Shown: positions 228 through 51,415, counted from the first letter of the stretch. The stretch: 60,385 nt of DNA from a virus (IMGVR_UViG_3300036859_000207:1-60385); one strand, 5' to 3'. Numbers and translations are program-made. Notes: generated by a model from the letters alone, not told the origin.

Positions 228-557
228 ATGGGTGAGATTGCCACCACTCCTATAGAGTTCTTCAGCCCGAAGACGCTAGCACAGCGCTGGTCACGCTCGC
301 GCCAGCATGTCTATGATCTGATCGCCGCTGGCGAGATCAAGGCAACGCCGTGGGGCCGGCTCGTGCAAATCCACCGGGCCGAGGTAGAGCGCTTTGAGAG
401 GAAGATGCTATGCGAGACGGGTACATCATCGGACGCTACCGCGGCGAATTCTGCGCCAAGCTCTTCGTCAACGGTAAAAGAGTCAGCCGAGTTACGCTTG
501 GCACGGATAACGCAGAGGAGGCGCAACGACAAATCCGCGACCTCAACGCCGAGTTGA
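228..557 (+). CDS. xis: Excisionase-like HTH protein
   Basis: SD aaggag at 215-220; FSPKTLAQRWSRSRQHVYDLIAAGEIKA winged-HTH pattern; overlaps 5' end of integrase. Confidence 0.8.
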   Translation: MGEIATTPIEFFSPKTLAQRWSRSRQHVYDLIAAGEIKATPWGRLVQIHRAEVERFERKMLCETGTSSDATAANSAPSSSSTVKESAELRLARITQRRRNDKSATSTPS

Positions 558-1501
558 TCCGTGACGCCCTCCCCGAGGTGATCACGGTAGACGCGCTGAT
601 GGACAAGTACATCGCTGACCGTGAGGCCGAGAAGAAGGTCGCCGTTTATCGCATGAAGCAATGCCAGGCGATCCTCAGGCCGCATTTCGGCGCGCTTCGC
701 CCCGAACAGGTCGACAAGGGGTTGTGCACGAAGTTCATCGAGAAGCGGCAGAACGTAAATGTTGCAAATACGACCATCCGCACGGAGCTGGCCTATCTAT
801 CGGCGGCGCTGCAATGGGCCGTCGACATGAAGCTGATAGCGGCCAAGCCGCGCATCTGGAGGCCATCCCGCGGGCGACCGCGAAGCGCCCGTGAGGACTA
901 CCATCTGACCAGGGCGCAGGCGGATCGGCTGTTGGCGGAAGCCAAGGGCACACCGCATCTGTGGCTCTGGATCATCCTGGCGCTCGGAACCGCCGGCCGG
1001 CCGCTGCATATCCTCCAGCTCACCTGGGATCGGGTCGACTTCCACCGCGGCTTCGTCAACCTTGATGACCCGGACCGGGACGCAAACGCAAAGGGGCGCG
1101 CTCGAGTTGCCATGAACGAGAGCGTTCGGGATGCGCTGCTGGAGGCCCGCAGGCGCGCCACCAGCCCGTACGTCATCGAGTTTGAAGGCAAGCCCATCAA
1201 GAGCATCAAGGGCGCCCTGAAGCGTGCCGCAGAGCGTGCCGGCATCGAGGCGAGCCCCTATGTGCTCCGGCATACGGCGGCCGTGTGGATGGCCGAGGCT
1301 GGCGTGCCGATCCCGGAGATCGGACAGATCATGGGGCACAGCAAGCCTGAGATCACCTACAAGGTGTACGCACGCTTCAGCCCAGGACATCAGAAGGGCG
1401 CCGTCTCGAAGCTGGAGGTAATGCGTAGCTCGGCCGGGTCTGTTGAACCGACAACACGGAACGTCGGCGGAACCATCGGGCCAGTCGTGATATCATCGTG
1501 A
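410..1501 (+). CDS. int: Tyrosine integrase
   Basis: Box I GTAGR, box II YVLRH...MGH...TYKVY; directly upstream of tRNA-derived attP. Confidence 0.95.
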   Translation: MRDGYIIGRYRGEFCAKLFVNGKRVSRVTLGTDNAEEAQRQIRDLNAELIRDALPEVITVDALMDKYIADREAEKKVAVYRMKQCQAILRPHFGALRPEQVDKGLCTKFIEKRQNVNVANTTIRTELAYLSAALQWAVDMKLIAAKPRIWRPSRGRPRSAREDYHLTRAQADRLLAEAKGTPHLWLWIILALGTAGRPLHILQLTWDRVDFHRGFVNLDDPDRDANAKGRARVAMNESVRDALLEARRRATSPYVIEFEGKPIKSIKGALKRAAERAGIEASPYVLRHTAAVWMAEAGVPIPEIGQIMGHSKPEITYKVYARFSPGHQKGAVSKLEVMRSSAGSVEPTTRNVGGTIGPVVISS

Positions 1502-2290: not shown

Positions 2291-2488
2291 CTACAGCGCC
2301 CTCCGAAACATCTGGCTCAGCATCTCGTGGAGAATGCGAGCCTCCATCTGAGTGATGATGTTCTCCGAGGTCGACTTCGGCCCCACAATCTTTATGGTCG
2401 CGCGCCCGACAGCCATCATGGTTCCGGGTGTGCGGGTTACGCTCATGGAAATCTTGTTGTCCAGCTCGTTGACAAACTCCCGCTGCAT
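2291..2488 (-). CDS. Hypothetical protein (left array)
   Basis: SD taggagg; tightly packed. Confidence 0.6.
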   Translation of the reverse strand: MQREFVNELDNKISMSVTRTPGTMMAVGRATIKIVGPKSTSENIITQMEARILHEMLSQMFRRAL

Positions 2489-2497
2489 CCCAGCCTC

Positions 2498-2698
2498 CTA
2501 TCGTTCTGTCGATTTGCGCAAATCTTCCACCGAAGCCATGTCCCGCAAGTGGTCCTCGATGAGTGCTGCTATCCTGCGGTAGCCAGTCATCCAGTGCTGG
2601 AACGCGACGCCGCCAACCGCATACGGGCACGCGGTCTCCACCTCGCCGAGCTCGGCGGCTCGTTCGCCCATCTTCTGCCACTTGATGACCGAGCCCAC
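2498..2698 (-). CDS. Rmf/CrpP-fold-like small protein (left array)
   Basis: GTG with SD gggagg; ACPY...HWMTGY pattern resembles ribosome modulation factor. Confidence 0.5.
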   Translation of the reverse strand: MGSVIKWQKMGERAAELGEVETACPYAVGGVAFQHWMTGYRRIAALIEDHLRDMASVEDLRKSTER

Positions 2699-2708
2699 GC
2701 GCACCTCC

Positions 2709-2864
2709 CTATCGGAATTGACCGTCGCAGAGATAGCGATGCGCAGCAGCCATCTTGAAAGCGTACCGCCATCGCATCGGTCCTGCGCCATGCCGCTTGC
2801 GGCGAACGATCCACAGCGCTCGCGCCCACATCTTCCAGCCGTAGAGCCATCGCCAGGCGTGCAC
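2709..2864 (-). CDS. Small Trp/Arg-rich hypothetical protein (left array; below ORF-track cutoff)
   Basis: GTG with SD gaggag; 51 aa; fills the gap exactly. Confidence 0.5.
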   Translation of the reverse strand: MHAWRWLYGWKMWARALWIVRRKRHGAGPMRWRYAFKMAAAHRYLCDGQFR

Positions 2865-2874
2865 GTGCTGCTCC

Positions 2875-3060
2875 TCAATTTCTCTCGCGAATGCGGCGCC
2901 TAAGCCGTCGCGCGGCCTCTGTCTTCTCGACGATCAGATCGCCAATATCTGCGTGCGGCTGGTTGGCCTCAGCGATCCGCAGCGCCTCTAACTGCGCCAA
3001 CGTCGCCTCAAGCTCCGCCGCGAGTTTCGCCTTCTTCTGCAACCTCACAGAGGTACGCAT
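2875..3060 (-). CDS. Hypothetical coiled-coil protein (left array)
   Basis: SD aggag; helical composition. Confidence 0.6.
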   Translation of the reverse strand: MRTSVRLQKKAKLAAELEATLAQLEALRIAEANQPHADIGDLIVEKTEAARRLRRRIRERN

Positions 3061-3076
3061 CGTCTCTCCTATCTTA

Positions 3077-3280
3077 TCAGGGGTCGCCAGCGAACACGTC
3101 GTTGGCGCCAGCTTCGATTTCATCTCCATCGCGCTCAGTCATCTCGTTGCGAAGACGCTCAAGGAGAGCATGCGTTGTGTTTGGAACGGGCGTCGGGAAC
3201 TTGGCTTCCACATACTCGCCCCAGCTTACAAGCTGGCGCACTTCGTCATCACTTAGCTCGAACATCGCGTCGCTCCTCAT
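3077..3280 (-). CDS. Hypothetical protein (left array)
   Basis: ORF track; SD present. Confidence 0.6.
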   Translation of the reverse strand: MRSDAMFELSDDEVRQLVSWGEYVEAKFPTPVPNTTHALLERLRNEMTERDGDEIEAGANDVFAGDP

Positions 3281-3462
3281 TTCCGCACTTCGATGACGCG
3301 CGTTGATTGACCGTCAAGCATCGCCCGCTTGCGCTCCGCATCGGCCGACAATCGGTCCACGAAGCACGTGGCGTAGCTCTGACTTTTCATCCACCCAGCG
3401 ACACGATGCCACCAGCGCTGCGGATATCGGTCGTCTTCCGGCCACTCAATCACGAAGGGCAT
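3277..3462 (-). CDS. Hypothetical protein (left array)
   Basis: SD ggaggag before ATG at 3462. Confidence 0.6.
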   Translation of the reverse strand: MPFVIEWPEDDRYPQRWWHRVAGWMKSQSYATCFVDRLSADAERKRAMLDGQSTRVIEVRK

Positions 3463-3641
3463 CTGGTTCTCCTCCGCCGCCAGCCTGCCACGCCGTACAT
3501 ACACATCACGAAGAACCACCAGTTTGCTCTCCACCGATGACCACATGTCCAAGTTGGTTGCAGCCGGCGGCATTCTCGGTTGTGCCAAATGACTGCGAGG
3601 ATCGCCCTGGGCAGCCGCAACAGGCTCAGACGTGGTCGCAA
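3450..3641 (-). CDS. Hypothetical protein (left array)
   Basis: TTG start with SD aaggag; fills gap. Confidence 0.4.
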   Translation of the reverse strand: MRPRLSLLRLPRAILAVIWHNRECRRLQPTWTCGHRWRANWWFFVMCMYGVAGWRRRRTRCPS

Positions 3642-3656
3642 CTCAATGCTCCTTTG

Positions 3657-3845
3657 CTACCTGTCTACGAAATACTCTTCGATCTGATAGTCGGTCGAGG
3701 AGATGCAATCGAACTTTCGACGCTTGGTTTCCTCGAAGTCTCGTTCGGTTGCAGCGTGCGCTTTTTCTCGGGTCGAGAACACGCCGATCATTCGCGGATC
3801 GCGCAGAGTTTCTTTGCCAAAGGTGACAACGAATACCGTCTTCAC
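3657..3845 (-). CDS. Small phage protein, VFVV...IGVFSTREKA family
   Basis: Common small phage-protein motif; SD taggag. Confidence 0.7.
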   Translation of the reverse strand: MKTVFVVTFGKETLRDPRMIGVFSTREKAHAATERDFEETKRRKFDCISSTDYQIEEYFVDR

Positions 3846-3854
3846 GTCGCGCTC

Positions 3855-4082
3855 CTATCTTGACAGCCCAAGCGCGCGCTTCAACCCCGCGAGGGTTTGG
3901 CCACCGCTTCGCTCGAAGTCCTGCAATGCACGTCGCGCGGCCGCTCGATCCTGCTCAGCTCGTCGTTCGGCAACCGCAGCCGCCGCCTCCGCATTGAGGC
4001 ATTCACGGCAGAACAAGTAGCCGTGCCTGTCGCATGTCCACTTGCCAGGGCCGATGCCAGCGTGGTGTGTGCCGTATCTCAT
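3855..4082 (-). CDS. Hypothetical zinc-finger-like protein (left array)
   Basis: CxxH...CxxC; SD gaggagg. Confidence 0.6.
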   Translation of the reverse strand: MRYGTHHAGIGPGKWTCDRHGYLFCRECLNAEAAAAVAERRAEQDRAAARRALQDFERSGGQTLAGLKRALGLSR

Positions 4083-4093
4083 TCGTGCCTCCT

Positions 4094-4318
4094 CTATTCC
4101 GGGTGCCTTGCAAATCTTCCGTCCATGAACTCGCCAATCGGGCGAACCCATACGCGCCCATCGCCATGCGCTTTGTAGACGACAACTGTTGCCAGCGTCG
4201 CCTCGATCTCAGCCACGGCGATCACGTCGTAATAGCCGCCCGTCTTCCGGTGTCGGAACGTATCTCCCATCGACACTTGGCTCAGCGGCTCACCCGTTTC
4301 CACGACTGTCACGTTCAA
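4094..4318 (-). CDS. DUF1653-like SH3-fold protein
   Basis: FRHRKTGGYYDVI...VVVYK...VWVRPIGEFMDGRF signature. Confidence 0.8.
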   Translation of the reverse strand: MNVTVVETGEPLSQVSMGDTFRHRKTGGYYDVIAVAEIEATLATVVVYKAHGDGRVWVRPIGEFMDGRFARHPE

Positions 4319-4323
4319 TGCTC

Positions 4324-4530
4324 CTAAACTTCTGTTGGGGTCTTCTGCAAATCTCGCAGGGTGCGCAAGTCCAGAGGTTTCACGCCAAGCCTGTAGCAGT
4401 CGCCAGCGTGCCAGTAGAGTGCCGGTTCGCGATCCATGGTGTAAACGACACGCTGACCCCGCTCGATGGACTTCCCGCAGTGGTCACACACCTCGCCGCA
4501 GTTCTTGAATGGCGTCACCAACTTCAACAT
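4324..4530 (-). CDS. Hypothetical zinc-binding protein (left array)
   Basis: CDHCGKSI...WHAGDC; C-terminus DLQKTPTEV comes from the junction repeat. Confidence 0.65.
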   Translation of the reverse strand: MLKLVTPFKNCGEVCDHCGKSIERGQRVVYTMDREPALYWHAGDCYRLGVKPLDLRTLRDLQKTPTEV

Positions 4531-4534
4531 CGCT

Positions 4535-4621
4535 TTATCCCTTCGTGGGCAAGATGCAGTCCAGCACAAGGCCGATAGCGAAGAACGCCCACATGAGGCC
4601 GACGATCTCTGCCCACGGCAT
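4535..4621 (-). CDS. 28-aa single-TM peptide (left array)
   Basis: SD taggagg; MPWAEIVGLMWAFFAIGLVLDCILPTKG. Confidence 0.45.
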   Translation of the reverse strand: MPWAEIVGLMWAFFAIGLVLDCILPTKG

Positions 4622-4630
4622 ATGTGCCTC

Positions 4631-4807
4631 CTATTCTGCTGACGGTTTTTGCAAACCCCACAACACTGCGGCTTTGATCAGACCACCCATGCCGCTCAAG
4701 ATCATTCCTGCAGCAACCCACCAGTTGGGCGCAGCTCCGAGCAGCGCAAAAACGCCAGCAGCGCAGCACCAATTTGCGCACAGCAGCAGGTGAACTCGCT
4801 CGCTCAT
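4631..4807 (-). CDS. Small membrane protein (left array)
   Basis: Two hydrophobic segments; SD gaggagg; ends GLQKPSAE (junction repeat). Confidence 0.6.
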   Translation of the reverse strand: MSERVHLLLCANWCCAAGVFALLGAAPNWWVAAGMILSGMGGLIKAAVLWGLQKPSAE

Positions 4808-5019
4808 GCTGCGCCTCCTCATGTGTTGCTGGCTGAGAACCGATCTTCCCAGCGCTTCGCGTCTTCGGGGTACGCCCACCGCATATCCTCAATCATGCGC
4901 CAGAAGCGTTCCTTATCTTCAGTCTTGTCGTCGCGCATCGCGTACATGTGACGGCGCAACAGATCGCCGTAGACGTACGCGGCTGGCTTCCACGGCTCCT
5001 CCAGGACACGGCCCTCCGA

Positions 5020-5247
5020 TTATTTGATCAGTCCCATTTGCTTGAACTGCTCGCGGCGAGCGAAGTTCTGCAGTTCGCCGCGCGTCACCCACCCGTGGAT
5101 TTTACCGCACCGGATGCATTTGCCGCCGATGCCTTCCGGCATGTCGTGGACGCGGCAGGCGAGACACCGGCCGAAGCGACAGCACATTCGTCCGAGCCAC
5201 TCGCTGAAGGTTTCCAAAATTGTCTCTCCTGCTCTTTCGTGCGACAT
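5020..5247 (-). CDS. Cys-rich hypothetical protein (left array)
   Basis: C...H...CIRCG pattern. Confidence 0.55.
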   Translation of the reverse strand: MSHERAGETILETFSEWLGRMCCRFGRCLACRVHDMPEGIGGKCIRCGKIHGWVTRGELQNFARREQFKQMGLIK

Positions 5248-5296
5248 GCCCCGCAGTAGGGGATCGGCGTTCCGTGTCTACACTTCACAGGCCCTC

Positions 5297-5515
5297 CTAT
5301 CTTGTTGCTTTCTCACGGCGCCAAACCGCGACCGTGACCCAGATTGCGACTGATGCCGTTCCGATAATCATGCTCGCCGCCCCGACGTAGTGTATGAGCG
5401 TTGCCGGCACGTCGATCGGGTCAACCAGGAACCAAAACGCGGCACCGACCACGACGAGAAACAAGCCAGACAATCCGACGCGGATCGGTCCTATCTGTTC
5501 GCTGAAGGGCTCCAT
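5297..5515 (-). CDS. Small two-TM membrane protein (left array)
   Basis: SD taggag; two hydrophobic helices. Confidence 0.65.
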   Translation of the reverse strand: MEPFSEQIGPIRVGLSGLFLVVVGAAFWFLVDPIDVPATLIHYVGAASMIIGTASVAIWVTVAVWRREKATR

Positions 5516-5522
5516 GATGCTC

Positions 5523-5891
5523 CTATGCTGTCGAGACTGGCGCGCAGCCGATGTGGTAGCGCTGGCCCATCGTCGTGATGTGTGCGTCGTGCGGGATTGA
5601 CGTGTAACACGTCGGGCACTGCTTCTCCGGAAACACCTTGAGCGAGCGTTCGATGATGGGGTTGACACATTCGTCTTCCACGTCGACCGCGTCGATGCCG
5701 TTTAGGATGTCACCGAGCTGACTAAGCAAGCACGCCGTGCGCTCGCCAACCTGATCTTCCAGTCCCTCCATGCCAGCGCGGTCCTGGAAGAGGCGCGCAT
5801 AGTCGGAGTGAACCTTCGCAATCACATCGGCCATGTGCGCGATGGCGCGGCACTGGTCGGCGACCTGCTGGCGCTTCGTCTGGGTGTCCAT
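5523..5891 (-). CDS. Hypothetical protein with C-terminal CxxC...HxxC
   Basis: SD aggag; first gene downstream of the recombinase. Confidence 0.7.
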   Translation of the reverse strand: MDTQTKRQQVADQCRAIAHMADVIAKVHSDYARLFQDRAGMEGLEDQVGERTACLLSQLGDILNGIDAVDVEDECVNPIIERSLKVFPEKQCPTCYTSIPHDAHITTMGQRYHIGCAPVSTA

Positions 5892-5905
5892 GTCTTGCTC
5901 CTGTC

Positions 5906-6520
5906 TTACCGTTTGCGCCTAGCCTTGGCGCGCTTCAGATAGTTGTTCACTGACGCGGGACTTATGTCGAATTTGAGCGCCAGCGACGACACCGTTGCGC
6001 CTCGCTTGCGCATCCGCACGAGGGTTGCCGCTTGGCGCGCGGTGAGTTTCGGCTGCGCTCCGTACATGAAACCGGCATCCTGTAGAGCCTTGATGCCAGC
6101 CGACGTGCGCTCTGACGTGCGGTCCACTTCGAGCTGCGCTAGTAGCGCCGTAAGCCCCATGGTGAAGCGACCGATCGGCGTCTTTACTTCCAAATGCGGC
6201 TCTGTGATCGAGCGAATTATGCAGCCGGACTTCTCGACCCGCTCGAGAAGCTTGTAGGCGTCGGAGGTGTTGCGCACGAGCCGGTCGAATTTCCATACCA
6301 GCAGCACATCGCCTGGGCGCAGGTCTATCAGCGCAAGCTCTAGCTGCGGCCGCTTGTGCCGCGTCGCGCTGCGCTTCTCCTGATAGATGTTCCAGCAACC
6401 GGCTTTCTCCAATGCCGCGACTTGCATTCGTAGGTCTTGGTCGTCGGTGCTGACCCTCGCGTAGCCGATCAGCTTGCCGGTCTCCTGCTTCTTCTGCACG
6501 CCAACCCCAGCGGTTTCCAC
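5906..6520 (-). CDS. Small serine recombinase (resolvase/invertase family)
   Basis: GYARVST catalytic motif, LRPGDVLLVWKFDRLVR, ERTSAG and C-terminal HTH. Confidence 0.95.
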   Translation of the reverse strand: METAGVGVQKKQETGKLIGYARVSTDDQDLRMQVAALEKAGCWNIYQEKRSATRHKRPQLELALIDLRPGDVLLVWKFDRLVRNTSDAYKLLERVEKSGCIIRSITEPHLEVKTPIGRFTMGLTALLAQLEVDRTSERTSAGIKALQDAGFMYGAQPKLTARQAATLVRMRKRGATVSSLALKFDISPASVNNYLKRAKARRKR

Positions 6521-6550
6521 AGCTCAACATCACATTTAGCGCAAATCCCC

Positions 6551-6581
6551 TTGACTGTCTAGTAGGCGTACGCTAGTTATA
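6551..6581 (+). promoter_or_regulatory. Sigma70-type promoter driving the right array
   Basis: TTGACT-N17-TAGTTA(T) in a GCTAG context, 26 nt upstream of ATG 6607. Confidence 0.65.
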
Positions 6582-6606
6582 CACCATCAGGCACGGGAGA
6601 GACGTA

Positions 6607-6846
6607 ATGGACCGCTTCAACGTCGCAGATCATGAGACCTTCGTACTTGTGACTGAGAAGACCATTCCGGGGCGCAGCTTTTTCTCATGCTTCGGCGCGA
6701 AAAAGGCGAGCTGGGGCTATCGCGGCTGCGGCGTGTTCAGCGTTCCGAGCGGCGAGCGCGAGGCTAACGTCAAGGCTCTGCTCACCGGCAAGTTTCATCG
6801 CTATCGCGTGTTTGATAACGACACCGGCCGCGAACTCACGATCTGA
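6607..6846 (+). CDS. Hypothetical protein (right array 1)
   Basis: SD gggag; ends TGAGGCC. Confidence 0.7.
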   Translation: MDRFNVADHETFVLVTEKTIPGRSFFSCFGAKKASWGYRGCGVFSVPSGEREANVKALLTGKFHRYRVFDNDTGRELTI

Positions 6847-6856
6847 GGCCGGCCAG

Positions 6857-7159
6857 ATGCGCAAAGACCTAATCCCGATGGTCGGCGGAGTGCCGCAGAC
6901 CCGACACATGATCAGGTTGAGGAAGATGGCAACGCTACCAATTCCGGCAATCGAGCTTCAAACGCTTGCCGCCTACGACGCATCAGACCGGCACATTCCC
7001 GACAGCGACCTTGACGATGAGCAGCCCATTACGCTCACGGTCAGCACGACGCTTGGCGAGGTACGGCGCATGCGGCGTACACATGCGATGATCGCGGAGG
7101 GTAAGCGTCTGCGCGATGCGGACGAGCGTGCACGTATCGCTTACGAAGACAGCCTGTAA
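6857..7159 (+). CDS. Hypothetical protein (right array 2)
   Basis: ATG after AGGCC junction. Confidence 0.65.
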   Translation: MRKDLIPMVGGVPQTRHMIRLRKMATLPIPAIELQTLAAYDASDRHIPDSDLDDEQPITLTVSTTLGEVRRMRRTHAMIAEGKRLRDADERARIAYEDSL

Positions 7160-7171
7160 GAAAGGCCCGAG

Positions 7172-7396
7172 ATGTGCGAGCGGTGCGATGATCTGGAGGA
7201 AGCCCTGACCCGCATCATGCTTTGGGCCGATGCCTACCCTCAGGACATCTTCCACGTGCCCGACGCCGCCGAGCTGAAGCGCGCCCATGAAGTTCTGAAG
7301 GCGAACGGCATGACTATCGATGCGATATCGGCGCACGCTATGCGTCACGCTCTACAGGGCGTTGGCGAGATCGCGCGCGGCATTCTGGCGAAGTGA
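7172..7396 (+). CDS. Hypothetical protein (right array 3)
   Basis: ORF track; AGGCC junction. Confidence 0.7.
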   Translation: MCERCDDLEEALTRIMLWADAYPQDIFHVPDAAELKRAHEVLKANGMTIDAISAHAMRHALQGVGEIARGILAK

Positions 7397-7410
7397 GAGA
7401 GGCCAATCTG

Positions 7411-7629
7411 ATGCCGATAGGCCCGAGCGACATCACGATAGCAAGTCAGGGCGCCAACATGGGCGCCCTGCGGATCATGTCTCGACGGACGGAAGAGCAC
7501 ATCGTCAGGGCCATGCTCCGCGACCTCAACGCGGAGGGACTCGTCGTCGTCAGATTGTCGGACTTTGAGAAAGGGCGTGATCTGATAACCGCGATCAGCG
7601 TCGCGATCAAAACCGACGATGACGTTTAG
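7411..7629 (+). CDS. Hypothetical protein (right array 4)
   Basis: AGGCC junction. Confidence 0.6.
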   Translation: MPIGPSDITIASQGANMGALRIMSRRTEEHIVRAMLRDLNAEGLVVVRLSDFEKGRDLITAISVAIKTDDDV

Positions 7630-7648
7630 TGTAACGGAGGCCTCTAAG

Positions 7649-7906
7649 GTGGCGAAGCCATGGACAAACCAAGTGATGCCGCCGCTGCAAGTGCAGCGAG
7701 AGTTTGGCGTCGCGCTTCTGCCATGCCCGTTCTGCGCGAGCGAGAACGTCGGCATGTGGGTTGTCGGTACGCCGCACGTCACGTGCGGAAGGTGCGAGGC
7801 CGATGGTCCCGCCATTTGGGGACCACGCGAAAACCTGGAAGAGCGCCGTCGCGAAGCAGCACTGCGCTGGAACGTGCGCCCGACTCTTCCTCAACCGTCA
7901 ACGTGA
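7649..7906 (+). CDS. Lar-family restriction alleviation-like protein (right array 5)
   Basis: LLPCPFC...VTCGRCEADGP...AALRWNVR signature. Confidence 0.8.
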   Translation: MAKPWTNQVMPPLQVQREFGVALLPCPFCASENVGMWVVGTPHVTCGRCEADGPAIWGPRENLEERRREAALRWNVRPTLPQPST

Positions 7907-7949
7907 GGCCGCCACGATAGCAATCAACACTTGGGCAGGGAGCGGACCA

Positions 7950-8153
7950 ATGCAGATCGATCACTATCGCCTGGATGTGGACGACGACAAGGGCGGCTTT
8001 TCGTTCACCTACGTGCGTCGCGACCTCAGGTATGCAGTCTCGCAATTCGAGAAGCACAGGTGTCGTGCGGGCGTGTCCTGCGTCACGCTGCGCGGCGTAT
8101 CCGCGTGGGGCGACCACATCGAGAACGTGAAGCACTATTCCGCGAACAGTTGA
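7950..8153 (+). CDS. Hypothetical protein (right array 6)
   Basis: SD gggag; ends TGAGGCCCGAGG. Confidence 0.65.
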   Translation: MQIDHYRLDVDDDKGGFSFTYVRRDLRYAVSQFEKHRCRAGVSCVTLRGVSAWGDHIENVKHYSANS

Positions 8154-8164
8154 GGCCCGAGGCC

Positions 8165-8572
8165 ATGAGCGATACTTGCCCGCGCTGCTACCCATTCATG
8201 AAGGGGAACAAGGTCTGTCGTGAGCATGCGCTCGAAGATGCGATCAGACCATTCGTCGAGGCAAGCAAGCGCTACGAGGAGAGCGGCGGCGACTTCGCGA
8301 AGGCGTTCCATTCTGTATCGGTCGCGGACATCCGCCGCGCCGCTGCAATTGACCTGCCGAAGAGTGACAAGGAAAGGCCCCCAAGTCGTGCACGCAAACT
8401 TACCTGGCAGATAGAGGACGAGCGCACGTCGCCTCACGGCGCTGTGGTGCAACTACTTCGGAGTGGCAAACATTGGGGCGTGCGCATTTGGTGGGATGAG
8501 TGTGAGTTTGAGATCACAAAGCACGCATCCGAACAAATTGCACGCGAGCAGTTCGCAACAGCCAACAACTGA
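8165..8572 (+). CDS. Hypothetical protein (right array 7)
   Basis: N-terminal CxxC; AGGCC junction. Confidence 0.65.
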   Translation: MSDTCPRCYPFMKGNKVCREHALEDAIRPFVEASKRYEESGGDFAKAFHSVSVADIRRAAAIDLPKSDKERPPSRARKLTWQIEDERTSPHGAVVQLLRSGKHWGVRIWWDECEFEITKHASEQIAREQFATANN

Positions 8573-8581
8573 GCCCCGACG

Positions 8582-8875
8582 ATGCGAACCAGCGAAGAGC
8601 GGGACCGAATGCACGACGAAGTCGTCGCGCGCTTCCCTGCTGGATTGACGCGCGGGCAGTTCAAGCTGGTGACGCTTGAAAGCGCGGACGAAGAAGACGG
8701 CCGCGTGTATCCGCCGTCGGTTGCCGACGGCGTCATGGCTACGCATTCGCTGATGATGGCGCTCTGGCTGCACGACAAAGTCGTGGAGCCGGGCTGGCGT
8801 GGCTACGACGTGCCGATGTGGTGGAAGATCACCCAGACGGGTCGCGATTGGGTCGCGGCCCAAAACGGAAATTGA
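8582..8875 (+). CDS. Hypothetical protein, winged-helix-like C-terminus (right array 8)
   Basis: WKITQTGR end resembles a wHTH wing. Confidence 0.65.
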   Translation: MRTSEERDRMHDEVVARFPAGLTRGQFKLVTLESADEEDGRVYPPSVADGVMATHSLMMALWLHDKVVEPGWRGYDVPMWWKITQTGRDWVAAQNGN

Positions 8876-8885
8876 GGCCCGAGGC

Positions 8886-9188
8886 TTGGAAGCCACCGCC
8901 ACAGTCGATGACGACGCCCTCTCGTTCCTGCTCTCGCTTGTGGCGAGGGAGCTGGTGGCGCGGAACTCTCCGTTGTGGAAGACGGATGTTGAGGCGGCGG
9001 CAGATGAGCACTGCGAGGCATGCGAAGCGGTGTGGAGCGAACTGTATCGCATGCTCGATAAGATACCCGTTGAAGCGGCGAAGCCGGCGCGGCCGGAACT
9101 GATAAAACGGGCGCTGAAGCGCGACATGAAAAAGGCGCTGAAGGCAGCACTGAGCAACACAGTCGATCAGTTGGTCGACGACCTGTAA
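8886..9188 (+). CDS. Hypothetical protein (right array 9)
   Basis: TTG after TGAGGCCCGAGG. Confidence 0.55.
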   Translation: MEATATVDDDALSFLLSLVARELVARNSPLWKTDVEAAADEHCEACEAVWSELYRMLDKIPVEAAKPARPELIKRALKRDMKKALKAALSNTVDQLVDDL

Positions 9189-9200
9189 GGAAGGCCAGAC

Positions 9201-9494
9201 ATGCTCAGGGTGGGACAGAAAATCGTATGTATCGACGGCGCGCCAGTGCGGAACGACTGCGCGGAGGTGATGCCGCTCCGCTTGGTTGAGGGCCAGATTT
9301 ACACGGTCCGCGAATTACACACCGAGCCGCATATTCATGGCTACGGAGTGCGCCTTGTTGAGCTGCCCAATCCGTCAATCGTCTGGAGCGACGGGACCGA
9401 GAAGGAATGGTCCTACCAGTCAGAGCGCTTTCGGCCAATCGTCGAGGGCGAAACCGAAGCGGGTATGCGCGACCGCGCTCCCGTCAATAGTTGA
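9201..9494 (+). CDS. Phage protein, VGQKIVCID...YTVR...RFRP family (right array 10)
   Basis: Recurrent small beta-rich phage-protein pattern; AGGCC junctions. Confidence 0.75.
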   Translation: MLRVGQKIVCIDGAPVRNDCAEVMPLRLVEGQIYTVRELHTEPHIHGYGVRLVELPNPSIVWSDGTEKEWSYQSERFRPIVEGETEAGMRDRAPVNS

Positions 9495-9503
9495 GGCCCG
9501 TTC

Positions 9504-9577
9504 CAGCGGTAGAGGTCGGTGCACCGCTGAAACCTCGAACAAGCACCGGCCGATCTTATCGGAGCTAGAACCCGATG
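9504..9577 (+). ncRNA. Candidate structured cis-regulatory RNA (pseudoknot plus RBS/ATG-sequestering switch)
   Basis: Stems cagcggt/accgctg, gaggt/acctc, ggtcggtgc/gcaccggcc; alternative ccgat/atcgg pairings. Confidence 0.5.
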
Positions 9578-9712
9578 GACGACGTGAAGAAGCAAGTGAA
9601 AGAGATGATCAGCAAGGCGGCGGAGGCAGAGAAGTCCGACGACGCACTCAAGTTTTCGCAGGCGGCACTGAACGCGGCGAACGCCTTGCGTCAGATTACC
9701 GACACGAAGTAG
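9575..9712 (+). CDS. 45-aa helical protein (right array 11; below ORF-track cutoff)
   Basis: MDDVKKQVKEMISKAAEAEKSDDALKFSQAALNAANALRQITDTK; followed by an 11-bp GAGA-loop hairpin at 9721-9746. Confidence 0.7.
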   Translation: MDDVKKQVKEMISKAAEAEKSDDALKFSQAALNAANALRQITDTK

Positions 9713-9767
9713 GCAACCAGCGCCGCGCTCGGAGACGGGCGCGGCGAACTTCAACGAAGGCCCGAGC

Positions 9768-9968
9768 GTGTCGCGCGACCCGAACTGGATGGACCCCGAT
9801 CAGACAATCACGCCGATTGTCTTGTCCGATATCATCGTCCGCATGCAGCTCAGAGAAGAAGTGGACCCGCGCCTGATGCTGCGAACGCTGCAATGGGCGA
9901 ATGCTCAGATAACTGAGATGCACGAGAAGATTGAGCGGGCGCGCTGGGCGCTCCGCGACCCGCAATAG
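9768..9968 (+). CDS. Hypothetical protein (right array 12)
   Basis: GTG after AAGGCCCGAG; ends TAGAGGCC. Confidence 0.6.
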   Translation: MSRDPNWMDPDQTITPIVLSDIIVRMQLREEVDPRLMLRTLQWANAQITEMHEKIERARWALRDPQ

Positions 9969-10265
9969 AGGCCGCCGTCATGCAGGCGGTGGCTTGCGGT
10001 TGTGCGCTCAAAGCGGCGCATCCCGACCACATCGCACAACTGGCGACAATACAAAGGCTTAGCTTAATCGGATCGTCCCCCGCGCGCGACACCGAACCGA
10101 GGTCCAAAAACAAAAGCAACCCCAACGCGGGGCCGCAGTCAGGCGCAAAAGGACGAAGGCACAAATATCAACCAAGCAACAACATCAGGGCGCACGCCGA
10201 CGTTAGGGCCGTTGCATTCACCGCCCACCGATGCACCCAGGTAGAATTGTACCAGCCATAAAACA

Positions 10266-10586
10266 TCATCCAACAACCCCCAATCCAGCGAGCCACGCTA
10301 GGCCGGAGGACAAAACCCGCCACAGCCAGCGCAGCCCCGGCAAAAGTAGGGTCCATATTGCCGCCGCCGCCAAGGCCAGCAGGGGCCACATATGATAGAG
10401 CAGCTTCAGGAGCCCAACGATCTTGGTCGCGATCTCCGCCATGGAGCTGATCCGCTCCCAATGATCTGCGGATGTCGGCGATGACTGGATCGAGCGGTCT
10501 TCGAGGGTCGAAATCCGCCCATCGTGACTCGTGGTCTGAGTCTTGAGCACCCGAAGGCGCGCCCAGAAAATGCTTTCGAGCTCCAT
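10266..10586 (-). CDS. Membrane protein at end of lysis cassette (holin/antiholin-like)
   Basis: SD gagg; coiled N-terminus (HDGRISTLE) and C-terminal TM. Confidence 0.55.
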   Translation of the reverse strand: MELESIFWARLRVLKTQTTSHDGRISTLEDRSIQSSPTSADHWERISSMAEIATKIVGLLKLLYHMWPLLALAAAAIWTLLLPGLRWLWRVLSSGLAWLAGLGVVG

Positions 10587-10606
10587 CGCGCATATCCGTG
10601 CTTCCT

Positions 10607-10906
10607 CTATGAAGTCGGCTTGTCACGCTCCCTCGACGGAAACAACGCCTTCAACTGCTCACTGCAGGACTGCCTATGCGATCTTTCAACCCTTGCATTC
10701 CGCTTCCAGGCTTCTCGATCCCTCAGGGCGATCACGTCGGTGATGTCCTGGTCCGGAAGCCTGGGTTCTTTTGGTGATGGCACCTTGGTGGTATCGCATT
10801 GATCGGGTAGCTGGGGAGAGTCGTTTGTGATATAGAGCGGGGGCGGAGCGTCCTTGGAGCAGGCGGATAGAATAACACAAGCCGCCAGTATCGTGGTGAT
10901 GCGCAT
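10607..10906 (-). CDS. Outer-membrane spanin (Rz1-like lipoprotein)
   Basis: Lipobox ILSAC after a short signal; Pro-rich; lysis cassette. Confidence 0.75.
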   Translation of the reverse strand: MRITTILAACVILSACSKDAPPPLYITNDSPQLPDQCDTTKVPSPKEPRLPDQDITDVIALRDREAWKRNARVERSHRQSCSEQLKALFPSRERDKPTS

Positions 10907-10936
10907 TTTGTTTTCCACGGAAGGAGGAGAACGGTC

Positions 10937-11410
10937 GTGCCGAATGATCACAATTGGGACCACGTCTTGGGTTGGCGTGTCGGCAAGCTTGTGGCGAAGC
11001 AGGTTTCCGGGTTGACCACCAGCGACGGGTCTATTGCGTTATCCGCTAAATGTGATTGCGGAAAAGTAGTGAAGATATCAGCGTCTAGGTTTGTGGTTGG
11101 CAACTATAGATCATGCGGGTGCGCAAGAGGTCCCGGCAAGCGTCTCACAAGCGCAAACAAAACGTCGCGCTTTAAGGGCGTAAGTTTTGCGGCGAATAGA
11201 ACCAAACAGTGGAAGGCGCAATGTCTTCGTCCAAACGGAAAGCGCCACATTGGATATTTTGATACAGAGGAAGAGGCGGCGCACGCTTACGATTCCGTTG
11301 CAACCCTAGCGTATGGGGACGCCGCCCTGACTAATGCGCATCTGGGGTTATTTGATGAAGTAGACCCACCATCAGATCGGCGGCCCTTCTTCCTGGAGAA
11401 AGATTTGTAA
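10937..11410 (+). CDS. AP2-domain DNA-binding protein (HNH-AP2 relative lacking an HNH core), antisense insertion
   Basis: CDCG...SCGC N-terminus; SRFKGV...HIGYFDTEEEAAHAYD AP2 motif; lower GC. Confidence 0.8.
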   Translation: MPNDHNWDHVLGWRVGKLVAKQVSGLTTSDGSIALSAKCDCGKVVKISASRFVVGNYRSCGCARGPGKRLTSANKTSRFKGVSFAANRTKQWKAQCLRPNGKRHIGYFDTEEEAAHAYDSVATLAYGDAALTNAHLGLFDEVDPPSDRRPFFLEKDL

Positions 11411-11417
11411 CCAAAGC

Positions 11418-11783
11418 CTACCGATTCAACTCCTTCACCATCACCCTCGGCCAAACCACCGGCCTGACCGGCTTCTTCAACAGTTCCGCTTCCAGCTTGG
11501 AATTCTGCAATGTCAGCACGTCGATTTCCTCTACTAGGTTCTTCTCTGCTCTGGAGCCGATGGCCATGGCGTCACGTTCTCGCTTTTGTCGCAGCGCGAG
11601 TTGCTGGATGCGGGCGTTGGCCATGCGGAGCTGCCAGGAGTTGCGTTCATCGAGTCTTGCGTCATGGCGGAGCCAGAACAAGCCGCCTACCAACAGTGCC
11701 ACCCCCAGCACAACCGCCACGGCTTGCATGGCGATGCCGGAGAGCTTCTGAGTCCACCAACCCAAGGAAAGGAGCGCCATCAT
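11418..11783 (-). CDS. Inner-membrane spanin (Rz-like)
   Basis: N-terminal TM plus coiled coil, between endolysin and lipoprotein. Confidence 0.65.
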   Translation of the reverse strand: MMALLSLGWWTQKLSGIAMQAVAVVLGVALLVGGLFWLRHDARLDERNSWQLRMANARIQQLALRQKRERDAMAIGSRAEKNLVEEIDVLTLQNSKLEAELLKKPVRPVVWPRVMVKELNR

Positions 11784-12006
11784 GACGAGTGTTCCAGACA
11801 CCAAGCCGCCGCAGGGTTTCAAAATGTGGATGAGCCCATATGGCTTCGCTCCGGGAACTGAAACGCCATACGATTATGAGCTGGTAGAAATCTGGCGATC
11901 CGGGAACAGAGATGTTGTCTACCCTGCGAAGCTACACCCGGCATTCAATGTGGCTAACCTCTACTGGCGCCCAGCGAAGCGCTTCGGCGAAGAGATGTCA
12001 GCCTAA
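11782..12006 (+). CDS. Hypothetical protein, antisense insertion in lysis cassette
   Basis: SD aaggag; exactly spans endolysin stop to spanin start. Confidence 0.6.
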   Translation: MTSVPDTKPPQGFKMWMSPYGFAPGTETPYDYELVEIWRSGNRDVVYPAKLHPAFNVANLYWRPAKRFGEEMSA

Positions 12007-50818: not shown

Positions 50819-51415
50819 ATGTCGAGGGACATCGGTAAAAAGATTGCTGAGTTGCGCAAGCTCCTTGGGGACACCCAGGAGATATTTGGCGAGCGCCTTG
50901 GTGTGGAACAAGCAACAGTCAGCCGCTGGGAGAAGGGTGAGCCGCCTCAGCGCCGGTACGAGAAGCCCATTGCGGACCTTGCTCATATGACGGTCGCGGA
51001 GTTCTTTCACTCGGCCGAAAAGCCGAGATTGATCCCAATTATCGGGGATCTGTCGGACAGAGGGGTTGCCCTGAGACCGACCAAATCGGGTGGCGCCATA
51101 GGCCATATCACATTGAGTTTAGGGGAAAATGACCAGATCGCTCTGACGGTCGTCGGGAACGCGCTGGCTCCCGCCTATCGCCACGGTGACACGATCATCG
51201 CCGGCAAACTCATCAAGGCGAAGATGGCCAAGGCGGTGGGCCGGGACTGCATTGTTTTGAGTACCTCTGGCGATGCCTACATCAAGAACGTGCGCAAGGG
51301 CAGCCGCAAGGGCGCGTACAACCTTCGCGATGTCGGACTAACCTCCAGCGACGATCTTGAAGACGTCGAGCTCCAATGGGCGGCGCCCATCATCTGGATC
51401 GGACGCGCGCAGTAG
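50819..51415 (+). CDS. cI: CI-like repressor (XRE HTH plus S24-like domain)
   Basis: TQEIFGERLGVEQATVSRWEKG; VVGNALAPAYRHGD...YIK. Confidence 0.9.
   Translation: MSRDIGKKIAELRKLLGDTQEIFGERLGVEQATVSRWEKGEPPQRRYEKPIADLAHMTVAEFFHSAEKPRLIPIIGDLSDRGVALRPTKSGGAIGHITLSLGENDQIALTVVGNALAPAYRHGDTIIAGKLIKAKMAKAVGRDCIVLSTSGDAYIKNVRKGSRKGAYNLRDVGLTSSDDLEDVELQWAAPIIWIGRAQ

Follow-up and report, generated by a model that had tools for sequence, protein, structure and literature searches.

We found that a short motif, AG[GC]CC, recurs in fixed phase to the start codons of an array of small genes in the virus record IMGVR_UViG_3300036859_000207:1-60385 (hereafter the window, the whole stretch of 60,385 bp that was analyzed, a complete virus record found in sequencing runs labelled soil metagenome). 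The motif, AGGCC or its variant AGCCC, was present at 12 of the 12 junctions of the plus-strand right array of genes A to L (6607-9968; A|B to K|L plus the end of L; Table 1), and this observation is real and far from chance. Our favored explanation, which we hold with about even confidence, is that AG[GC]CC is a start-associated sequence, a specialized ribosome-binding element of one accessory operon with a putative reader of its own, situated on the boundaries of exchanged gene cassettes. We arrived at a start-associated translation element because the motif has a fixed phase to the start, overlaps a Shine-Dalgarno (SD) core, is confined to one operon and is deeply conserved. The first-pass annotation of this DNA had offered crossover scars of cassette insertion, RNA processing and translational control as possible roles; translational control was the best supported of these, by the phase to the start (31 of 39 sites), the SD-like overlap of AGG or GAGG, and conservation.

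Position and anatomy of the motif

The first-pass annotation had placed AGGCC at 11 of 12 junctions and AGCCC at the remaining one (8572), and every copy that it listed was present on the plus strand, including the second tandem copy at 8160 (Table 1). The same was true of the fusions with the stop codon (TGAGGCC at 6844, 7904, 8151, 8873 and 9492; TGAGCCC at 8570), of a 14-mer repeated at 8150 and 8872, and of a longer repeat at about 7146 and 9176. At K|L, the motif goes with the start of L: it lies 46 nt past the stop of K and 10 nt before the GTG of L. The copies at 7906 and 9494 had been called too far from the next start to serve as its ribosome-binding site (RBS); the distances were indeed 44 and 81 nt, and genes F and K have a GGGAG and a GGAG of their own.

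In the positional enrichment test that had been proposed, AG[GC]CC lay within 16 nt past the stop in 11 of 12 array genes versus 5 of 82 other genes of the window (Fisher p=7e-10); AGGCC alone gave 10 of 12 versus 1 of 82. On the start side, AG[GC]CC was found 7-15 nt before a candidate start in 9 of 11 array genes (B to L), in 0 of 9 left-array genes and in 4 of 74 others (9/11 versus 4/83, p=3e-8). Between 6844 and 9973 we counted 15 copies on the plus strand and 1 on the minus strand; at the plus-strand rate found elsewhere in the window, about 4.2 plus-strand copies were expected (Poisson P=3e-5). Over the whole window, AGGCC showed no enrichment (148 found versus 155 expected); its excess is positional. 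When we searched for GAGGCCCGAG with at most one mismatch, five of the six matches were array sites and the sixth lay inside a gene. Chance or composition was excluded as the cause of the pattern by the stop-side and start-side enrichment, the strand bias and the control 5-mers described below.

The phase to the start codon was measured on 39 sites from seven loci, where a start had to open an open reading frame (ORF) of at least 40 aa. The first A of the motif lay 7-13 nt before the start in 31 of the 39 sites, with a mode of 11, and in these the gap between CC and the start was 2-8 nt, with a mode of 6. The distance from the upstream stop to the motif was 0-16 nt, and in 14 of the 39 sites the A of the motif was the last base of the stop codon. 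This placement is the SD position. In an alignment of 31 junction sites, taken from the window and from four of its relatives, CC occurred in 31/31, A at -5 in 27/31 and a purine (R) at -1 in 31/31, and the core figures are circular because the sites were chosen by AG[GC]CC. On the downstream side, C at +5 and G at +6 each occurred in 20/31. The fuller consensus is A-R-n-n-R-AGGCC-C-G, with low information outside the 5-nt core.

The purine part of the motif (AAGG, GAGG or GGAG) can pair with the anti-SD core CCUCC, but the CC cannot; all pairing was judged with a generic 16S ribosomal RNA (rRNA) 3' tail. In the AGCCC variants the SD part shifts (GGAG-CCC, TGAG-CCC) and the CC stays; the variant TGAGCCCC of 8572 also occurred in L120, L124, L146 and L147. 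Canonical SD pairing was rejected as a full account, since the CC is non-complementary yet invariant (31/31 of the motif-selected sites).

The left array is divergent from the right one, and its minus-strand junctions between 2291 and 5891 read TGAGGAGC, TAGGAGC or TAAAGGAGC, a canonical SD followed by C. This GGAGC junction type was consistent in the window and its relatives (L124, L120 and L146, on the recombinase strand). Because the left array has its own consistent junction, the divergent arrays use two RBS 'dialects'. AGGCC, and not the left-array type, was present at the first two junctions that follow the recombinase in L146. A gene at 2498-2878 on the minus strand (126 aa) matched the ribosome modulation factor (RMF), whose site of action is close to the anti-SD; the match was sub-threshold (PF04957, 25.4 bits versus a cut-off of 27.9, E=1.5e-5). 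The RMF-like gene was rejected as a lineage-wide partner of the motif: among the loci compared, it was present in the window and L124 alone.

Relatives and conservation of the motif

The serine recombinase gene at 5906-6520 was used as the anchor gene for finding relatives. Besides the recombinase, genes J and A led to related uncultured contigs, as did, fortuitously, the 14-mer. L124 had the motif at 7 of 7 junctions (five AGGCC, two AGCCC), and its genes after A differ from those of the window. L120 and L121, which were reached through gene J and not through the recombinase, had five and four motif sites, respectively. Three sites were found in L026, including an identical tandem TTGAGGCCCGAGGCC, and seven in L146, often as AGGCCTCTAAGATG and next to a recombinase 61% identical to that of the window. 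L152, with a recombinase 45% identical, had AGGGCC at three junctions and AGGCC at one. Pairwise blastn of the arrays revealed common DNA in A (window and L124) and J (window, L120 and L121) alone. Overall, the motif was kept beside serine recombinases 36-61% identical to that of the window.

We surveyed the best 80 viral loci encoding a recombinase homolog and scored the 77 with at least 600 nt upstream. AGGCC preceded 75 of 582 ORFs in the array direction versus 23 of 529 on the opposite strand (p=4e-7), and at least three matches were found at 10 loci in the array direction versus 0 on the control strand. The control 5-mers GGCCT, ACCGG, AGCGC, CCGGA and AGGAG, four of which match AGGCC in composition, showed no strand difference in these 77 loci. 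The distant positives L225, L192, L223 and L194 have a GC content of 0.53-0.58 and junctions of the AAATAGGCC(G/C)..ATG type, in which a TAG stop and the motif overlap in another register; L225 had the motif at 9 of 12 ORFs. Therefore, the core was kept across gene turnover, GC content and stop-codon register.

A crude junction screen gave a background of AG[GC]CC in 61 of 1943 pseudo-junctions, which is a rough rate only, as the screen misses real junctions. In 400 kb of a Rhizobium genome, a stand-in and not a known host that was chosen solely because a distant J-like gene occurs there, AGGCC was on the start side of 7 of 366 genes and on the stop side of 7 of 366; in this single sampled bacterium, the motif is thus no general trait of the genome. 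Distant J-like genes (33-36%) were found in a Rhizobium sp. and in a Rhizobiales genome, without motif arrays, and a search of 401 genomes sampled from that order yielded no close recombinase at E<=1e-40. The host is probably proteobacterial. Searches of GenBank phages gave no match to the array DNA and no homolog of J; recombinase homologs there were about 40% identical or less, and TerL at most 52%. In viral contigs, gene H had no relatives, gene A was found in the L124 and L125 contigs alone, and relatives of the Lar-like gene E were found at 16 loci.

Probing of viral contigs with the 14-mer returned at least 119 stretches, and L026 was the sole true relative of the few that were inspected. 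In L022, the 14-mer TTGAGGCCCGAGGC occurs six times between 4602 and 6904, in a long tandem repeat inside a large minus-strand ORF. We rejected these copies as junctions; they are a chance look-alike in an unrelated viral contig. L124 contains, at about 5810-6000 on the minus strand, a gene-free stretch of ~190 nt past an orphan AGGCC with two T-arm-like GGTTCGAG(T/A)CC hairpins; ARAGORN found no tRNA in this stretch, and Rfam gave just a sub-threshold match to M23 (24 bits versus 41.2).

Cassette boundaries and competing explanations

Blocks of similarity shared with relatives repeatedly ended at the motif. The window and L124 have in common a block of 100% identity at 5898-6850, which ends on the last base of the first AGGCC. 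The window and L120 have in common a J block of 98.4% identity at 9185-9500, whose left limit includes the stop of I and the left motif and whose right limit is two bases beyond the right motif. With L121, J matches at 73% from 9191 onward. In a sequencing run that may be the source of the window, the J unitig (9198-9500) had a depth of 65 versus 23-25 for its flanks, and the loose ends at 9185 and 9500 were the flanking sequences of L120. Therefore, two phages in one sample share a single J cassette. A further loose end occurred exactly at 9969, where a contig in the same run diverges upstream of that base, and contigs in two other runs matched 5898-6850 without difference and then diverged.

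A check on whether homologs lose similarity exactly at the motif had been proposed. Such a loss was seen for the right-array blocks (6850, 9185, 9500 and 9969), but left-array blocks also stopped at junctions without the motif: six of their seven ends were at junctions without AGGCC, and one (3474) was inside a gene. The right-array junctions span just 8-25 nt, so breakpoints that preserve genes must fall in them. The boundaries demonstrate exchange of single-gene cassettes, not a causal role of the motif in it. The proposed crossover scars stood in a weak sense, in that similar blocks end at the motif and motif copies flank segments with an RBS of their own. In the site-specific sense the scars lack support, given the motif-less left junctions and a conserved stretch of ~12 nt that is asymmetric, with neither the inverted repeats nor the dyad symmetry by which known recombinase sites are marked. 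What does resemble scars are the orphan motifs after E and J, each followed by a segment (F, K) with its own RBS that is closed by another motif (7906 and 8153-8160 around F; 9494 and 9758 around K), and the tandem motifs at 8153/8160 and 8875/8882.

Junction-like relics were found inside genes D and G (Table 1), and 8361-8381 was 95.2% identical to an L124 junction over 21 nt. Gene G has a GC content at third codon positions (GC3) of 0.65, below its neighbors, and an internal out-of-frame TGA with the junction-like sequence at 8365-8385, and two former cassettes may have fused to form this gene. Gene K has a GC3 of 0.83 and is followed at about 9722-9748 by a strong GC-rich hairpin without a T run. 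Because the segment with K (9495-9757) is bracketed by direct AGGCCCG copies at 9494 and 9758, it looks like a moron-type insertion.

We propose that the purine part (RAGG, GAGG or GGAG) of the motif would act as a short SD core 6-9 nt before the start codon, and that its frequent overlap with the preceding stop codon would couple the translation of successive small genes. The CC(C/G) would be read by an agent other than the anti-SD, either an RNA-binding factor of the phage or the host or a component of the ribosome, whose existence we infer. Such a reader would give the right array its own translational 'dialect', with GGAGC being used by the divergent left array. The same element also lies at the points where co-occurring related phages swap single genes; it coincides with gene-exchange points because every cassette has the same 5-12 nt at both ends, and it probably supplies microhomology for cassette exchange. 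Position, spacing, orientation, conservation among lineages and block boundaries of the motif were observed directly; its RBS function, the reader of the CC and any part in recombination are our proposals.

Several results weigh against this mechanism. The predicted anti-SD duplexes were modest (mean -7.1 kcal/mol, and just -1.9 for H), and the RBS strength is therefore something that we infer. We found no common RNA fold around the motif and no candidate reader of the CC: there was no complementary sequence within the window that would suggest an antisense RNA (GAGGCCCGAG matches), and no gene family enriched within about 5 kb in 15 motif-positive versus 66 motif-negative loci, where the best enrichment among flanking families (p=0.21) was that of the recombinase itself. 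At least five sites lie past a stop without a nearby start (7906 and 9494 in the window; 6000 and 4790 in L124; 2600 in L121, where a canonical AAGGAG follows), and a pure RBS would not persist at such orphan sites unless they are recent relics. In addition, the ORF calls of the recombinase survey were crude, any start within 90 nt being counted, and the survey includes duplicate or near-identical contigs (L177/L125, L192/L193).

The motif might have no extra function at all. It would then contain a weak SD (AGG or GAGG), while the CC and the flanks hitch-hike in a self-copying linker. At this shared junction, rare recombination, either microhomology-mediated or of the relaxed homologous kind, would join cassettes from a pool common to related phages. 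The block ends at the motif agree with this, the tandem or nested motifs (8153/8160, 8875/8882, 7400/7419) and the relics in D and G resemble join scars, and two junctions between unrelated genes have an identical 14-mer, which is also present in L026. Short conserved flanks and RecET recombination on 5-13 bp are discussed as routes to mosaicism (PMC2327257), and PeSL cassettes are described as mediating shuffling in T4-type phages (PMC2839356). However, the core persists where the anchor recombinase is 36-45% identical and the GC content is 0.53-0.63, and without selection five bases should drift. A linker would also not account for the tight phase to the start, and left-array cassettes exchange equally well without AGGCC. 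Nor did the flanks show a within-genome 'flavor' of the kind expected from gene conversion (within minus between -0.03, permutation p=0.56), and concerted evolution of junction flanks within a genome was rejected on this basis. We consider a linker without function unlikely. The divergent serine recombinase that accompanies the motif array in the window, L124, L120, L146, L152, L147 and L121 raises a different idea, integron-like capture, in which this phage enzyme inserts and excises promoterless single-gene cassettes at the AGGCC core. In such a phage counterpart of the integron the core would double as RBS, so that a captured gene is expressed at once, and the orphan and tandem motifs would be scars; we give very little credence to the capture and equally little to this fuller picture. 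L120 and L121 were reached through gene J and not through the recombinase, direct motif copies bracket segments F and K, and motif-positive loci cluster mildly on the recombinase tree (10 changes, where shuffling gave a mean of 13.0 and 9 of 500 shuffles gave as few; one five-row clade all positive, support 100/99). On the other hand, the recombinase was the query that led to most of the loci, which makes the linkage in part a product of the search design; of the 77 recombinase loci, 62 have fewer than three motif matches, and the tree forces at least 9 changes. Just about 12 asymmetric nt are conserved, without dyad symmetry or inverted repeats. Known sites of small serine recombinases are about 28 bp or more and are bound by dimers. 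Recombination also needs no fixed distance to start codons, and the public contigs mapped on the region contained neither deletion joints nor circle joints between motifs.

Two further possibilities rest on analogy with other phages. T4 RegB cuts GGAG in early RBSs, and by analogy an endoribonuclease might cut the polycistronic transcript within or close to AGGCC. In favor of this, the motif runs in the direction of transcription (15:1) and also occurs past stops without a start (7906 and 9494; L124 4790, before a terminator-like hairpin), but a cleavage site needs no fixed phase to the start and no nuclease candidate was found nearby; this possibility appears improbable to us. An asymmetric DNA site that a phage protein would bind, silencing the array by blocking elongation in the manner of a stoperator, seems just as doubtful. 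The asymmetry, the single orientation and the short intergenic spaces overlapping stops and starts would fit such a site. However, the motif is confined to one array, the CI-like repressor gene is 41 kb away, there is low information beyond the 5-nt core, and the fixed phase to the start points to translation.

Known systems and neighboring features

The closest counterpart that we found is the start-associated sequence (SAS) of Cluster K mycobacteriophages, described as a 13-bp asymmetric repeat that contains AGGAG and conserved bases not pairing with 16S rRNA. It is conserved before different gene families, always in one orientation, at 3-7 bp from the start and in the non-structural arm alone, and it sometimes overlaps the upstream stop (Pope et al. 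2011, PMC3203893). According to a 2025 report, SAS function still needs experimental verification (PMC12699233). Like SAS, the array motif occupies the RBS position a few nt before the start (2-8 nt after CC), has one orientation (15:1), is restricted to the non-structural part, and is kept before different genes (in L124, L120, L121, L026, L146, L152 and the distant loci). The 3' halves are also alike, with an SD core followed by CCC. A further SAS-like trait may be the AGG or GAGG core next to a CC that has no pairing partner in the generic 16S tail. In the source papers, SAS membership allows at most two deviations from the 13-bp consensus (PMC3203893, PMC12699233). At up to 3 mismatches, we found 26 matches to this consensus in the window versus 18.6 expected, and 0 of the 26 were in 6844-9973. 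Unlike SAS, the array motif has a core of 5-6 nt with weak flanks, is often fused to the stop codon, also exists as orphan copies and belongs to a different phage group; the array has no ESAS-like 17-bp inverted repeats, for which its junctions are too short. The array motif resembles SAS in behavior but, judged by sequence, is not a SAS member.

Other phage systems resemble the array in part. PeSL elements of T4-type phages are described as a sigma-70 promoter plus a terminator stem-loop of tens of nt (PMC2839356, Arbiol et al. 2010), repeated, like the array motif, between small non-essential ORFan genes of plastic regions, where close relatives differ by genes gained, lost and replaced (PMC2839356). 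Unlike PeSL, the array motif is an RBS-sized oligomer, with no common hairpin and 0 promoter-like sites in 5800-12000. For the boundary sequences of lambdoid phages, we know of no fixed start phase and no single invariant core. In a subset of these phages, such sequences, like the array motif, are reported to be short, conserved and located at gene boundaries, where they can explain module exchange by homologous recombination (PMC2327257). Numerous sites at which the repressor binds and ends elongation have been described in Cluster A mycobacteriophages under the name of stoperators (PMC9283540; see also PMC3203893). They resemble the array motif in their many asymmetric copies, oriented with transcription in short intergenic spaces; unlike these 13-bp, genome-wide sites bound by the immunity repressor, the array motif is confined to one array and start-phased. 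The RegA operators and RegB cleavage sites of T4 are examples of a phage factor acting in trans on the RBS regions of early mRNAs. Unlike in T4, we identified no factor of this kind, and the array motif is unrelated in sequence. Unlike integron attC, an imperfect inverted-repeat site of tens of bp at each cassette end, the junctions are 8-25 nt long without inverted repeats, and the adjacent recombinase is a serine resolvase (PF00239), unlike the tyrosine recombinase IntI. A search of literature full text for AGGCC together with Shine-Dalgarno and phage found nothing, and broader searches found nothing closer.

As far as the literature was searched, start-associated sequences have so far been described in Cluster K mycobacteriophages alone. 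If our favored explanation is true, the array would add a second, unrelated case, which would suggest that temperate phages make general use of RBS 'dialects' that are specific to an operon and have a non-rRNA reader. The present case occurs in many uncultured phages whose GC content differs, and it is paired with a GGAGC dialect in the divergent array. The CC would offer a short, mutable target for studying the translation of accessory or anti-defense gene arrays, and the motif could be a marker for finding such arrays and cassette boundaries in metagenomes.

Table 1. Coordinates of genes, arrays and motif sites in the window
Feature	Positions	Strand	Remarks
Tyrosine integrase	410-1501		
Left array, small genes	2291-6520	-	5906-6520 as first gene
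Small serine recombinase (resolvase/invertase type)	5906-6520	-	PF00239, E=2.4e-34; divergent from right array
Right array, 12 small genes A-L	6607-9968	+	
Gene A	6607-6846	+	
AGGCC	6846-6850	+	fused to TGA of A; 11 nt before ATG of B
Gene B	6857-7159	+	ATG
AGGCC (TAAGAAAGGCCCGAG)	7163-7167	+	9 nt before ATG of C
Gene C	7172-7396	+	ATG
AGGCC	7400-7404	+	11 nt before ATG of D
Gene D	7411-7629	+	ATG
Junction-like relic inside D	7419-7429	+	11-mer identical to 9758-9768; no start codon behind
AGGCC (GGAGGCCTCTAAG)	7638-7642	+	11 nt before GTG of E; flavor as in L146 junctions
Gene E, Lar-like	7649-7906	+	GTG
Orphan AGGCC	7906-7910	+	fused to TGA of E; F begins 44 nt further on
Gene F	7950-8153	+	own GGGAG
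Tandem motif GAGGCCCGAGGCC	8153-8164	+	fused to TGA of F; ATG of G at 8165; identical in L026
Gene G	8165-8572	+	ATG at 8165
Junction-like relic inside G	8365-8385	+	contains AGGCC at 8375; TGA out of frame with G
AGCCC variant	8572-8576	+	fused to TGA of G; 10 nt before ATG of H
Gene H	8582-8875	+	ATG
AGGCC in GAGGCCCGAGGC	8875-8885	+	fused to TGA of H; 11 nt before TTG of I
Gene I	8886-9188	+	TTG
AGGCC	9192-9196	+	9 nt before ATG of J
Gene J	9201-9494	+	ATG
Orphan AGGCC	9494-9498	+	fused to TGA of J; K begins 81 nt further on
Gene K	9575-9712	+	45 aa; own GGAG
AGGCC	9758-9762	+	10 nt before GTG of L; 46 nt past stop of K
Gene L	9768-9968	+	GTG
Terminal AGGCC (probable)	9969-9973	+	one base past TAG of L
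CI-like repressor gene	50819-51415		41 kb from array

Among the array genes, the sole family match was that of gene E, to PF14354 and phrog_599 (Lar restriction-alleviation protein). The ORF at 9980-10261, which follows the copy at 9969, has a GC3 of 0.65 and no family match, and is a doubtful gene, so that the copy at 9969 is probably the last motif of the array. Past the right array, lysis and structural genes lie on the minus strand. No Rfam match at gathering scores and no tRNA gene were found in the window. The recombinase (204 aa, with a C-terminal helix-turn-helix) and gene A diverge across a mere 86 bp, a gap where a res-like or operator site might sit; a sigma-70-like promoter scan over 5800-12000, which includes this gap, found 0 candidates. 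In the whole window, the tetranucleotide GGCC was rare (415 observed versus 551 expected under a second-order model, ratio 0.75), and CGCG (0.79) and CCGG (0.84) were likewise under-represented.

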